IMG/VR virus record: IMGVR_UViG_3300029459_000083
Strand: one strand, 5' to 3'
DNA: 4,300 bases
Source: a virus
Lineage: Duplodnaviria; Heunggongvirae; Uroviricota; Caudoviricetes
The notes under the pieces were generated by a model. It was not told the DNA's origin and made no database searches. It worked only from the letters and a program-made list of their open reading frames with translations. Position 1 is the first letter of the stretch. Each line of letters starts with the position of its first letter. This document shows, piece by piece, positions 1 to 4,300 of this stretch. The translations under genes were made by a program, and so were the position numbers.

Positions 1-2685
1 TACCATATCCGCGGTCGTATCATCCAGGTGCCGTCAAACTATGACCCGGAAAAACGCACGTACAGTGGTATCTGGGACGGCAGTCTGAAACCGGCATACA
101 GCAACAACCCGGCCTGGTGCCTGTGGGACATGCTGACTCACCCGCGCTACGGCATGGGAAAACGTCTGGGGGCGGCGGATGTGGACAAGTGGGCGCTGTA
201 TGCCATCGGGCAGTACTGCGATCAGACGGTCCCGGATGGTTTCGGGGGGACCGAGCCGCGGATGACCTTTAATGCGTACCTGGCACAACAGCGTAAGGCG
301 TGGGACGTTCTCAGTGATTTCTGCTCGGCGATGCGCTGTATGCCGGTATGGAACGGCCAGACGCTGACGTTCGTTCAGGACCGCCCGTCGGATGTGGTGT
401 GGCCGTACACCAACAGCGATGTGGTGGTGGATGATAACGGCGTGGGATTCCGCTACAGCTTCAGCGCCCTGAAGGACCGCCACACGGCGGTGGAGGTGAA
501 TTACACCGACCCGCAGAACGGCTGGCAGACCTCCACGGAACTGGTGGAAGACCCGGAAGCCATACTGCGCTACGGACGCAACCTGCTGAAGATGGATGCG
601 TTCGGCTGTACCAGCCGCGGTCAGGCCCACCGTGCCGGACTGTGGGTGATAAAGACCGGACTGCTGGAAACGCAGACGGTGGATTTCACGCTCGGGTCAC
701 AGGGGCTGCGGCACACGCCCGGAGACATCATTGAAATCTGTGATAACGACTACGCCGGAACCCTGACCGGCGGACGTATCCTGTCCATCGACGCCGCCAG
801 CCGTACACTGACGCTGGACCGTGAGGTGACACTGCCGGAGACCGGTACCGCCACGGTGAACCTGATTAACGGCAGCGGTAAGCCGGTGAGTGTGGACATC
901 ACCGCACACCCCGCGCCGGACCGGATACAGGTCAGTACCCTGCCTGATGGCGTGGCGACATACGGTGTGTGGGGACTCTCCCTGCCGTCACTGCGTCGTC
1001 GCCTGTTCCGTTGTGTCGCCATCCGGGAAAACACGGATGGCACCTTTGCCATCACGGCAGTGCAGCACGTACCGGAAAAAGAAGCCATCGTGGATAACGG
1101 GGCCAGCTTTGAGCCGCAGTCAGGCACCCTGAACAGCGTTATTCCTCCGGCAGTGCAGCACCTCACGGTGGAGGTGAGTGCCACAGACGGCCAGTATCTG
1201 GCGCAGGCGAAATGGGACACGCCGCGGGTGGTGAAAGGTGTGCGCTTCAGTCTGCGTCTGACCAGCGGAAGGGGGGATGACAGCCGCCTGGTGACCACCG
1301 CCATCACCGCAGACACGGCGCACCGTTTCAGTGGTCTGCCGCCCGGGGAATACACCCTGACGGTCAGGGCGATTAACAGCTACGGCCAGCAGGGCGAACC
1401 TGCCACCACCACGTTCCGGATTGACGCCCCGGCAGCGCCTGCCACCATTGAACTGATACCGGGGTATTTTCAGATAACGGCGGTCCCGAAACTGGCTGTA
1501 TATGACCCGACGGTACAGTTTGAATTCTGGTTTTCGGAACAGCAGATTGCGGATATCAGGCAGGTTGAAACCTCCGCCCGCTATCTTGGCACGGCGCTGT
1601 ACTGGATAGCTGCCAGTATCAATATCAAACCGGGCCATGATTATTACTTTTATATCCGCAGTGTCAACCTGGTGGGCAAATCGGCATTTGTGGAGGCCGT
1701 CGGCCGGGCCAGCGATGATGCCGAAGGCTACCTGAATTTTTACAAAGGGCTGATTAATAAAACACATCTCGGTAAAGAGCTGCTGGAAAACGCTGAACTG
1801 ACGGAAGATAACGCCAGCAGACTGGATGAGTTTTCGAAAGAGTGGAAAGACGCTAACGATAAATGGAATGCCATGTGGGGCGTCAGAATTGAGCAGACCG
1901 AAGACGGTAAGCATTATGTCGCTGGGCTTGGCCTCAGCATGGAGGACACGGAGGACGGTAAACTGAGCCAGTTTCTGGTTGCCGCTAACCGTATCGCGTT
2001 TATTGACCCGGCAAACGGGAATGAAACGCCGATGTTTGTGGCGCAGGGCAATCAGATATTCATGAACGACGTGTTCCTGAAATACCTGACGGCTCCCACC
2101 ATTACCAGCGGCGGTAATCCTCCGGCATTTTCCCTGACACCGGACGGGCGGCTGACGGCGAAAAATGCTGATATCAGCGGTAACGTGAATGCGAATTCCG
2201 GGACGCTCAACAACGTCACGATTAACGAGAACTGTCGGGTTCTGGGAAAATTGTCCGCGAACCAGATTGAAGGCGATCTCGTTAAAACAGTGGGCAAAGC
2301 TTTCCCCCGGGACTCCCGTGCACCGGAGCGGTGGCCATCAGGGACCATTACCGTCATGGTTTATGACGATCAGCCGTTTGACCGGCAGATTGTTATTCCG
2401 GCGGTGGCATTCAGTGGCGCTAAGCATGAGAGAGAGCATACTGATATTTACTCCTCATGCCGTCTGATAGTGCGGAAAAACGGTGCTGAAATTTATAACC
2501 GTACCGCGCTGGATAATACGCTGATTTACAGTGGCGTTATTGATATGCCTGCCGGTCACGGTCACATGACGCTGGAGTTTTCGGTGTCAGCATGGCTGAT
2601 GAATAACTGGTATCCCACAGCAAGTATCAGCGATTTGCTGGTTGTGGTGATGAAGAAAGCCACCGCAGGCATCAGTATCAGCTGA
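1..2685 (+). CDS. J: Tail-tip host-specificity protein J (central tail fibre), 5'-partial; C-terminal ~894 codons present
   Basis: Open frame runs from base 1 (codons [27 protein letters not shown]...) to TGA at 2683-2685. The ORF track's start at 28 is an internal GTG; there is no stop in 1-27, so the gene begins upstream of the window. The translation closely resembles what I recall of lambda gpJ ([69 protein letters not shown]). Two fibronectin-III-like segments are visible (~1144-1440 and ~1441-1720). GC content falls from about 60% in the 5' part to about 42-50% in the 3' part. Confidence 0.93.
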
Positions 2686-2752: not shown

Positions 2753-2824
2753 ATGCGTAAAGTTTGTGCAGCCATTTTGTCCGCAGCCATCTGTCTGTCC
2801 GTATCCGGTGCGCCTGCATGGGCG
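2753..2824 (+). other. Sec signal peptide of Lom (24 aa, predicted cleavage after AWA)
   Basis: MRK, then a hydrophobic core AAILSAAICLSV, then SGAPAWA / SEHQ: an n-h-c layout with an A-x-A signal-peptidase-I motif. Confidence 0.7.
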
Positions 2825-3356
2825 TCTGAACATCAGTCCACACTGAGCGCGGGGTATCTTCATGCCCGTACGAACGCCCCCGGCAGCGATAATCTGAACG
2901 GGATTAACGTGAAATACCGNNNNNNNNNNNNNNNNNNNNNNNNNNNNNNNNNNNNNNNNNNNNNNNNNNNNNNNNNNTGAGGATGAGCAAAAAACGCGCT
3001 ACAGAGATACCCGCTGGCATGAAGATTCCGTGCGTAACCGCTGGTTCAGCGTGATGGCGGGGCCGTCTGTACGCGTGAATGAATGGTTCAGCGCGTATGC
3101 GATGGCGGGTGTGGCTTACAGCCGTGTGTCGACTTTCTCCGGTGATTATCTTCGCGTAACTGACAACAAGGGGAAAACGCACGACGTGCTGACCGGAAGT
3201 GATGACGCTCGCCACAGCAACACGTCTCTGGCGTGGGGGGCTGGCGTGCAGTTTAACCCGGCCGAATCCGTGGCCGTTGATGTCGCTTATGAAGGCTCCG
3301 GCAGTGGCGACTGGCGCACTGACGGTTTCATTGTGGGTGTCGGTTATAAATTCTGA
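2753..3356 (+). CDS. lom: Outer-membrane protein Lom (Ail/Lom/PagC/OmpX-family beta-barrel), interrupted by an assembly gap
   Basis: ATG at 2753 with an upstream RBS. The N-terminal 55 codons (MRKVCAAILSAAICLSVSGAPAWASEHQSTLSAGYLHARTNAPGSDNLNGINVKY) and, after the N-run, 125 codons (EDEQKTRYRDTRWHEDSVRNRWFSVMAGPSVRVNEWFSAYAMAGVAYSRV...GDWRTDGFIVGVGYKF, stop 3354-3356) both closely match lambda Lom as I recall it. The ORF track splits the gene into 2753-2980 and 3030-3356 only because of the gap; the pre-gap frame (mod 3 = 2) and post-gap frame (mod 3 = 0) differ, so the gap length is nominal. The C-terminal ...GYKF ends in an aromatic residue, as is typical of beta-barrel outer-membrane proteins. 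Confidence 0.88.
2920..2977. other. Assembly/scaffold gap (58 N) inside lom
   Basis: A run of 58 'n' characters. The flanking lom reading frames are out of register, and the TGA at 2978-2980 in the upstream frame is an artefact. Confidence 0.99.
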
Positions 3357-3383
3357 TTAGCCAGGTAACACAGAGTTATGACA

Positions 3384-3409
3384 GCCCGCCGGTTCTGGTG
3401 GGCTTTTTT
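3384..3409 (+). terminator. Rho-independent terminator downstream of lom
   Basis: GCCCGCC (3384-3390), loop GGTTCT, GGTGGGC (3397-3403) gives a 7-bp stem with one G-U pair, followed by TTTTTT (3404-3409). It starts 28 nt after the lom stop codon. Confidence 0.5.
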
Positions 3410-3418
3410 GTGGGGGGA
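3410..3418 (+). promoter_or_regulatory. G-rich Shine-Dalgarno region for stf
   Basis: GTGGGGGGA sits immediately upstream of the ATG at 3421; the purine-rich GGGGGA portion can act as an SD, though the spacing is short. Confidence 0.4.
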
Positions 3419-3420
3419 AT

Positions 3421-4300
3421 ATGTCAGTACAGATTTCAGGTGTGCTGAAGGATGGTACAGGAAAACCGGTACCGAACTGCACCATAGAGCTGAAAGCCGT
3501 GAGAACCAGCGAGACGGTGATAGTCACCACGGTGGCGGAGTGTCAGCCAGGGGAAACAGGCAGTTACACCATGCAGGTTGAGCCGGGGCGTTATCGTGTG
3601 ACCCTGTGCGTGGAAGGCCGTCAGCCGGCATGCGCTGGCGAGATTGATGTCATGGCAGACGACGAGCCGGGCACACTGAATGCGTTTCTGCTGCGTGAGC
3701 AGGACAGCACTTATTACCCTGAATCGCTGAAAAAACTGGAAGACGCGGCGGATGCGGCTGTCAGCAGGGCAGAGGAAGCGGCGAGGAAAGCGGAAACGGC
3801 GGTTGGGCCACAGGGACAGAAAGGCGACACCGGGGCAACGGGTCCGCAGGGACAGAAGGGAGACAAGGGTGATACAGGCCCACAGGGGCCAAAGGGTGAT
3901 AAAGGAGACAAGGGCGATAAGGGGGATACCGGCCCGAAAGGTGAGCAGGGCGACCCGGGAGGTCCACAGGGACCGAAGGGCGACAAGGGGGATACAGGAG
4001 CTGCAGGCCCGGCAGGACCGCAGGGACCGAAAGGGGATACAGGAGCCACAGGTCCGGCAGGACCGCAGGGACCGAAAGGGGATACAGGAGCCGCAGGCCC
4101 GGCAGGACCGCAGGGACCGAAGGGAGATACGGGAGCTGCAGGCCCGGCAGGACCACAGGGTCCAAAAGGGGATACGGGAGACACAGGCCCGGCAGGACCA
4201 CAGGGACCGTCAGGAAGTCCTGACAGCGGACTGTTTGGTGTCGGTTCTTTTGTCCTTGCGGCGTATTATGCGACGAGTTATTCGGGGGATATGGCACCGG
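3421..4300 (+). CDS. stf: Side tail fibre protein (Stf-like) with a collagen-like Gly-X-Y domain, 3'-partial
   Basis: ATG at 3421 opens a frame that stays open to the window end; it is absent from the ORF track because no stop is reached. The N-terminus [26 protein letters not shown]... resembles the lambda Stf (orf-401) N-terminus [26 protein letters not shown]... as I recall it. The 64-nt spacing after lom matches the lambda layout. An Ala/charge-rich linker ([23 protein letters not shown]) precedes about 45 uninterrupted G-X-Y triplets ([80 protein letters not shown]...), after which a non-collagenous segment begins ([28 protein letters not shown]). Confidence 0.88.
3805..4215 (+). repeat. 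Collagen-like triplet repeat tract (about 45 G-X-Y triplets, 9-bp GGN-CCN-NNN periodicity)
   Basis: Reading in the stf frame gives Gly at every third residue from codon 3805 to codon 4213, with Pro, Gln, Lys, Asp and Thr in the X and Y positions. Confidence 0.9.
3991..4209 (+). repeat. 45-bp direct tandem repeat, about 4.9 copies, in-frame (encodes [15 protein letters not shown])
   Basis: Units GATACAGGAGCTGCAGGCCCGGCAGGACCGCAGGGACCGAAAGGG begin at 3991, 4036, 4081, 4126 and 4171 (the last partial), each differing from its neighbours by only a few substitutions. Confidence 0.85.

Follow-up and report, generated by a model that had tools for sequence, protein, structure and literature searches.

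The DNA considered here is a 4,300-nucleotide (nt) window, by which we mean the whole stretch that was analysed (IMG/VR virus record IMGVR_UViG_3300029459_000083; all coordinates refer to the full window), and it covers the distal part of the tail gene cluster of a lambdoid prophage, with the gene order J-lom-stf. The last of these genes encodes a collagen-containing protein related to Stf, the side tail fibre protein of lambda, and within its collagen-coding region lies an array of five tandem 45-nt units which we read as a coding minisatellite, a tract in which whole units are probably gained and lost without disturbance of the reading frame. The features of the fibre gene are listed here, amino acid (aa) positions being those of its product and PM4-5 being an Escherichia coli strain (NZ_CP096834.1) whose fibre gene matches that of the window apart from one gap:

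3421-4300, plus strand: Stf-like side tail fibre gene, with its ATG at 3421, 293 codons seen and the frame open at the window end.
3421-3693, plus strand: N-terminal collar domain, aa 1-91, delimited by a phmmer alignment to Ur-lambda gpStf (PDB 9E7M).
3694-3804, plus strand: linker and short alpha-helical stretch, aa 92-128, inside the PF08400 match.
3805-3960, plus strand: proximal collagen segment of 17 triplets (aa 129-180), weakly periodic at 9, 27 and 36 nt and of near-constant length in relatives.
3949-3972, plus strand: the single break in the G-X-Y register, G-D-P-G-G-P-Q-G, aa 177-184, a one-residue break.
3961-3987, plus strand: partial unit GPQGPK (3961-3978, matching the 3' end of a unit) and a GDK triplet leading into the array; repeat homology upstream of the array.
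3988-4212, plus strand: five in-frame 45-nt tandem units, aa 190-264, set by Tandem Repeats Finder (TRF) and the frame of the open reading frame (ORF) that starts at 3421.
4063-4091, plus strand: breakpoint interval of the 270-nt difference from PM4-5, 28 nt of common identity across the junction of units 2 and 3.
4213-4300, plus strand: the GSP triplet that closes the collagen (4213-4221), followed by the initial 26 residues of a non-collagenous C-terminal domain, 88/88 nt identical to PM4-5.

In Pfam, the fibre product matches the prophage tail fibre N-terminal domain PF08400 over aa 1-127 (134 bits against a cut-off of 26.6) and, downstream of it, the collagen triple-helix family PF01391 (75.6 bits against a cut-off of 27.2); its best match among PHROGs is PHROG 366, 'tail fiber protein', with an E value of 3.6e-79. 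The first 91 residues align over their whole length with the first 91 of Ur-lambda gpStf (PDB 9E7M; phmmer E 1.8e-28), and this collar homology, together with the position of the gene downstream of J and lom, places it with the lambda Stf-type side fibre genes. The corresponding position in lambda is taken by a flexible linker followed by a coiled coil (PMC12617516); an AlphaFold model of a relative of the window protein has a helix at 95-127, at low model confidence. If the unseen remainder of the gene equals that of PM4-5, the full-length protein would have ~352 aa. The full C-terminal domain of relatives comprises ~85 aa, ends in GLFQRIS and belongs to no Pfam family. An exact look-up of the reconstructed 352-aa protein and of the proteins of seven relatives returned no match in the collection queried. 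A scan of genome contigs with the whole 293-aa product, dominated by its collagen pattern, retrieved unrelated collagen-like genes of other phyla (L019-L098) and no enterobacterial locus.

The array itself is well defined. TRF reports 3988-4209 with a period of 45, 4.9 copies, 89% matches, 0% indels and a score of 346, and the reading frame divides the tract into units of 15 residues, each composed of five G-X-Y triplets with the consensus GDTGA(A/T)GPAGPQGPK, the last residue being K or S. A preliminary description of this DNA, made from the letters alone, had proposed roughly five in-frame 45-bp units of 15 residues at 3991-4209; the TRF result and the layout of the frame bear out the number and nature of the units and their location, although the limits given were 3 nt too narrow at each end, five full units occupying 3988-4212. 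Units 1, 3 and 4 encode the same peptide, and units 2 and 5 encode one variant peptide each. At the DNA level the units are 82-96% identical in pairwise comparison (2-8 differences per 45 nt), units 1-3 being 93-96% alike and units 4 and 5 more diverged, and 10 of the 16 departures from the unit consensus are synonymous third-position changes. Self-identity is 0.88 at a lag of 45 and 0.87 at a lag of 90, as against 0.56-0.60 at lags of 9, 36 and 54 and ~0.25 out of frame; because the value at lag 45 exceeds those at 9, 36 and 54, the 45-nt period is real and stands well above the background expected of any collagen-coding sequence.

In the collagen region in which the array is embedded, glycine recurs with a period of three from aa 129 to aa 267 and slips out of register once, at aa 180/181; apart from that break the region is uninterrupted (Gly-X-Y)n above the Pfam threshold, and the triple helix itself is predicted. 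The break is kept in all 19 genes compared, and the segment that begins with the collagen and ends with the first GPK triplet beyond the break (aa 129-186 here) comprises either 58 or 61 aa in 19/19 of them. Since the proximal collagen and the break are constant, length variation lies specifically in the 45-nt array distal to the break. It may be that the break acts as a kink or hinge between a constant proximal and a variable distal collagen. Three relatives from the protein database (P0005, P0013 and P0170) have neither the proximal collagen segment nor the register break; the sequence with which the collagen region begins, GPQG(P/Q)KGDTGATG, is unit-like, and deletions between it and the array seem to occur.

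How variable the array is can be judged from its relatives. A search of 5,426 complete E. coli genomes found 31 that match at least 80% of 3361-4300, the best at 98.4% identity, so that the genome from which the window came is not among them. In all, 26 related arrays were compared, 18 from loci found in this search of complete E. coli genomes and eight from IMG/VR contigs that had been found with the N-terminal domain alone. The complete-genome arrays have 4 copies (once), 5 (six times), 6 (three), 8 (three), 9 (three), 10 (once) or 11 (once), and the IMG/VR arrays have 7 to 12, so that copy number ranges from 4 to 12 over the 26, always in 45-nt steps. The coding sequences of the fibre genes at the 18 loci are 1008-1329 nt long and, where the C-terminal type is the same, differ by multiples of 45 or small multiples of 9. 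Proteins show the same pattern: a collection of 5.8 billion yielded 264 matches at E <= 1e-40, the named ones nearly all from E. coli with a few from Salmonella and Citrobacter, and full-length proteins with the same flanks have 307, 322, 367, 382 or 397 aa, corresponding to 2, 3, 6, 7 or 8 units, with further length series at 373/388 and 339/354 aa. The overall span, including these protein-database relatives, is 2-12 units. The preliminary description had suspected a length-variable module and had named an identical copy number across related prophages as the outcome that would speak against one; what was found instead are head-to-tail units with a copy-number polymorphism among close relatives in one-unit steps, the pattern that characterises a minisatellite or variable number tandem repeat. 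In two of the protein-database relatives (P0121 and P0144) some units are 18 residues long and contain an extra GPA triplet, a second, 9-nt scale of apparent slippage inside the 45-nt unit.

The most direct evidence that whole units come and go is provided by pairs of near-identical alleles. The fibre gene in the window and that of PM4-5 align with 0 mismatches over 880 nt and one 270-nt gap, equal to six units; by part, the two are identical over 64/64 nt of the intergenic region, 384/384 of the N-terminal domain, 183/183 of the proximal collagen and 88/88 after the array, and the five window unit alleles, 1-5, are units 1, 2, 9, 10 and 11 of the 11-unit PM4-5 array. Among the other relatives (cited by L numbers), L100 and L102 each differ from L099 by 1 mismatch plus a gap, of 90 nt and 135 nt, respectively, and the pairs L014 and L007, and L009 and L015, differ by 5-7 mismatches and a 45-nt gap. 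The sixth unit of L001 combines the 5' 22 nt of unit 6 of L003 with the 3' 23 nt of unit 7 of that array, and would be the hybrid expected of an in-register exchange that removed one unit. Long arrays hold identical neighbouring units. The gain and loss of whole 15-residue units in frame, as proposed in the preliminary description, is therefore supported by near-identical alleles that differ in n x 45 nt. The unit peptide is under constraint as well: the 70 unit alleles distinguished at the DNA level reduce to 21 peptides, with 74% of the codon differences being synonymous.

We envisage that the units, 45 nt long and with exact shared stretches of up to ~40 nt, could pair out of alignment, and that such mispairing, whether by replication slippage or by unequal homologous exchange, and whether within one prophage or between co-resident prophages, would add or remove whole units with the frame and the Gly-X-Y register kept. 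Judging from these sequence comparisons, we put the probability at roughly 0.8 that the array is a coding minisatellite in a lambda Stf-type side tail fibre gene of a lambdoid prophage of the E. coli group, with whole units gained and lost in frame. Several observations weigh against this interpretation. Four pairs of isolates that look near-clonal by strain names and record lengths (ZH48/ZH49, ST865/ST866, 1504D004/1604D011 and OkiPb01678/OkiPb01712) have equal match lengths, and the arrays of L011 and L013 are identical; because of this, the tract is best described as polymorphic between lineages, not hypermutable. Turnover would be slow relative to point mutation, as unit identity within arrays barely exceeds that between them. 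Among the near-identical allelic series, L099-L102 come from short contigs (7-9 kb), whose copy numbers could be assembly errors. Finally, AlphaFold2, run on the monomer with an alignment of eight sequences of relatives, gave a mean predicted local distance difference test score (pLDDT) of 38, too low to be informative.

Among the alternatives, the one that survives best holds that the array serves mainly as shared homology for swaps of the C-terminal receptor-binding domain among lambdoid prophages, and that change in copy number is a neutral by-product. The relatives contain at least five unrelated C-terminal ends after the same N-terminal domain and array: that of the window; one beginning AQQVSAGDIGS...; one beginning TELLTTANTW... 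and carrying a Peptidase_S74 intramolecular chaperone domain; EGISPDGVLRS... (P0010); and RLVPGEIYSIG... (P0161), the alternative ends having been seen in L006, L016, P0010 and P0161. In BLAST comparisons, homology to many relatives ends at base 848-849 of the query, equivalent to window position 4208-4209, the end of the array. The window is itself a mosaic: it is identical to PM4-5 from ~3016 to 4300, whereas the 5' half of lom (~2753-3015) shares only ~74% identity with PM4-5 and with each of the 18 fetched relatives and is 98.8% identical to the lom of the second locus in strain HCP4S3_I4. Collagen-like repeats have been proposed as phage recombination hot spots (Desiere et al., as cited in PMC7242381), and modular architectures among E. 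coli prophage proteins are put down to inter-prophage recombination by Ghosh et al. (2012; PMC3368898). Given the unrelated C-termini, the point at which BLAST homology ends and the mosaicism of the window, the array also marks a boundary at which receptor-binding modules are exchanged. Such exchange is, however, compatible with the minisatellite and does not exclude it. The allelic series with identical N- and C-terminal flanks, in which unit number alone differs, means that copy number also changes without domain exchange, and a unit peptide so strongly conserved suggests a structural role, not merely a role at the level of DNA. That domain exchange is what the array is chiefly for seems to us a serious possibility, if clearly the lesser one.

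A different kind of alternative concerns whether the count of five is real, or whether it is a short-read assembly collapse of a longer array, for instance one of 11 units as in PM4-5. The window gene is that of PM4-5 base for base save for six internal units, and up to k=38 the PM4-5 gene contains every one of its k-mers. From k=39 upward, however, the k-mer spanning the junction of units 2 and 3 is absent from PM4-5, and for that reason a de Bruijn assembler working at k>=39 could not have built the junction out of reads of the PM4-5 type. Exact internal repeats in the window gene reach 39 nt at most, and current short reads are longer than this, so that a true five-unit array should assemble cleanly. 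There is reason to suspect a draft source: a run of 58 N at 2920-2977 stands where the closest lom alleles, 98.8% identical on both sides of it, have 54 nt, so that the run is not length-true and shifts the lom frame. A mask that preserved length would not give this mismatch; the run has the look of a scaffold gap whose size was estimated, the source probably being a draft assembly. The five-unit junction was not found in the 5,426 complete E. coli genomes (best 98.1%), nor in IMG/VR or the metagenome contigs of the Joint Genome Institute (JGI), where the 94-nt junction of units 2, 3 and 4 was searched for exactly. Many draft assemblies break within the collagen region, and the preliminary description was right to see an assembly hazard in this tract, as many deposited relatives are labelled 'partial' (172-232 aa) and break off within the collagen, their contigs being 0.2-3 kb long, and the IMG/VR contig L105 ends inside its own array. 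Against collapse, arrays of 4-6 units are present in complete genomes, and one in-register deletion across the 28 nt of identity accounts equally well for the difference from PM4-5. On balance we think it unlikely that the count is an artefact.

It is comparably doubtful that the units are kept alike by ongoing concerted evolution, in which frequent gene conversion or unequal exchange would homogenise each array. Over the 27 arrays, mean unit identity is 0.82-0.92 within arrays and 0.83-0.87 between them, and in the window the units are 0.876 identical to one another as against 0.86 to the units of other arrays. The window unit alleles also recur exactly elsewhere, unit 2 in 11 other arrays and unit 5 in three, and four of the five are found in other prophages; because exact alleles are held in common in this way, the units behave as old, exchangeable alleles and not as locally homogenised copies. 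Some arrays do fit homogenisation better: internal identity is higher in the long arrays of PM4-5 (0.912), L099 (0.917) and L011 (0.904), which contain identical adjacent units, and the arrays of L104 and L106 are dominated by one unit-peptide variant that is rare elsewhere. The preliminary description had taken the similarity of the units in the window to imply recent duplication or concerted evolution; the window array does not bear this out, and it is only the long arrays of PM4-5, L099 and L011 that look recently expanded. On/off phase variation is ruled out, as a 45-nt unit is divisible by three and every variant in length keeps the frame.

If the array is a coding minisatellite, it is worth considering what a change in unit number would do to the fibre. 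In Ur-lambda, twelve gpStf collar domains form the collar at the gpV/gpM junction, and the four trimeric side fibres that emanate from it are longer than the central fibre and are thought to be the first to touch the cell (PMC12617516). By homology to that solved structure, the N-terminal 91 residues of the window protein are the collar domain, through which a trimeric fibre would be anchored to the tail; the sequence, along with experiments on the related proteins EPclA and EPclB, suggests that a collagen-like triple helix would form the shaft; and the small C-terminal domain, cut by the window end, would presumably be the distal tip, with a receptor-binding or trimerising role. The shaft would then comprise a constant proximal part, the one-residue break in register and a distal part built of 15-residue units, each of which would shift the length by ~4.3 nm (15 x 0.286 nm), so that the collagen would be ~40 nm long here and ~65 nm in the 11-unit PM4-5 protein. 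It is tempting to speculate that unit number is an adaptive length dial, by which the reach of the side fibre is tuned in ~4.3-nm steps relative to the gpJ fibre and to the thickness of the O-antigen or capsule and helps to set which E. coli strains can be adsorbed, with the break as a hinge between a fixed proximal and an adjustable distal rod; we consider this rather unlikely.

Upstream of the fibre gene, the window contains two further genes:

28-2685, plus strand: the C-terminal 885 codons of gpJ (central tail fibre or tip attachment protein), identified by its ORF and by Pfam; the gene starts to the left of the window.
2753-3356, plus strand: lom, encoding an Ail/Lom outer-membrane beta-barrel, with a Pfam Ail_Lom match of 217 bits on the 3' part and the run of 58 N at 2920-2977.

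The gpJ part matches the Pfam families Phage-tail_3, Ig_J, Ig_J_second, Phage_Tail_Tip and Ig_GpJ_C, and gpJ is annotated in the fetched relatives, L014 and L015 excepted. The order J, lom, tail fibre gene and DUF4376 gene is annotated in 16 of the 18 fetched E. coli relatives, at several chromosomal sites. In L014 and L015, from pig isolates (Quebec and Lacombe, Canada), an IS66-family element, ISCro1, occupies positions 1-1839 in place of gpJ, directly upstream of lom, and these two prophages are for that reason defective; their fibre arrays differ by one unit despite the IS66 element at the gpJ position. GC-rich hairpins followed by T runs, resembling terminators, lie at 2704-2733 (after gpJ) and 3383-3414 (after lom), three such sites having been found where 0.6 would be expected, and since they flank lom on both sides this gene resembles a self-contained inserted cassette. 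A simple scan found no sigma-70-type promoter. The gene 3' of the fibre gene in relatives (5397-6005 in L002, with equivalents in 17 other loci) encodes a DUF4376 protein of ~200 aa that belongs to PHROG 1141, 'tail fiber protein', and has no other Pfam family above cut-off; it may be a chaperone or a distal fibre component. Two ORFs on the minus strand, at 3714-4184 (156 aa) and 3761-4297 (178 aa), were rejected as genes: both lie wholly inside the G/C-rich collagen-coding tract, where the sense frame has strong Pfam, PHROG and PDB matches, and they are most likely by-products of G/C-rich triplet periodicity, a codon periodicity that would suppress stops in all frames. Neither the window nor the annotated flanking regions of the relatives gave any hint of a diversity-generating retroelement or of an invertible segment, and INPHARED contains no isolated phage with the window fibre gene, the best match there being 86% identical over 20% of the query.

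The relatives provide a natural series, from 2 to 12 units at a predicted ~4.3 nm each, with which one could ask if the adsorption rate or host range of lambdoid and Stx-related phages depends on the length of the side fibres, and the array could guide the engineering of fibre length. There is also a practical consequence, as the tract breaks or may collapse in short-read assemblies and fibre gene lengths taken from draft genomes are thus unreliable.

The closest functional analogue for a repeat number that sets fibre length is BclA of Bacillus anthracis, in whose collagen-like region the number of in-frame repeats reportedly varies between strains and sets the length of the surface filaments. 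BclA is, however, a glycoprotein of the exosporium of a Gram-positive spore, has another repeat unit and shares no homology with the window protein outside G-X-Y. Among viruses, a spontaneous 81-nt in-frame deletion across 27-nt collagen-like tandem repeats in ORF8 of the Guarani/Sputnik virophage accompanied an expansion of host range (PMC7242381), and in Streptococcus thermophilus phages, as far as the secondary account goes, collagen-like repeats separate the domains of the antireceptor, whose variable region VR2 is the main determinant of host range (Duplessis and Moineau, 2001, as cited in PMC5601072). The viruses and proteins in both cases are unrelated to those considered here, and the unit lengths are different (27 nt).

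Within the lambdoid phages, the window fibre is like lambda Stf (Ur-lambda, PDB 9E7M; PMC12617516) in its collar domain and in its position downstream of J and lom, and it would be expected to be a trimeric side fibre that projects from a collar where tail tube and tip meet and is the first to contact the cell. It differs in that the lambda shaft is a long coiled coil with a hinge, ending in a tip that binds OmpC, whereas the window fibre has a collagen-like shaft and an unrelated C-terminal domain that falls in no Pfam family; in relatives of the window fibre, unlike in lambda, the downstream gene encodes the DUF4376/PHROG 1141 protein. The nearest described relatives are the EPcl proteins of enterohaemorrhagic E. 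coli (Ghosh et al., 2012; PLoS One 7:e37872, PMC3368898). Like EPclA-D, encoded by side tail fibre genes of lambdoid prophages of E. coli, the window protein has PfN (PF08400) followed by (Gly-X-Y)n. Unlike EPclA and EPclB, which are trimeric and form a thermally stable triple helix by experiment, it is without the 109-116 aa PCoil, a low-complexity coiled coil between PfN and the collagen (Col), the collagen starting at aa 129 right after PF08400, and its full-length relatives are without PfC (PF06820). It fits instead the rarer EPclC, which has PfN and Col, usually no PCoil, the interruption G-X-P-G-G-P-X-G and a C-terminus unrelated to PfC, the C-terminus having been judged here on PM4-5, which is 100% identical in the overlap. 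According to Ghosh et al., collagens of one architecture differ in length by multiples of three residues (63-144 aa in EPclA); the passages of their paper considered here do not describe a 45-nt tandem unit, a unit-level allelic series or copy number as the variable. That collagen length varies in E. coli prophage tail fibres has thus been known since 2012, and current understanding of these proteins is unchanged to that extent; what is added here is that the variation resides in a discrete 45-nt coding minisatellite that lies beyond a conserved break in the collagen register, is present in 2-12 copies and is found in near-identical alleles that differ only in the number of units.

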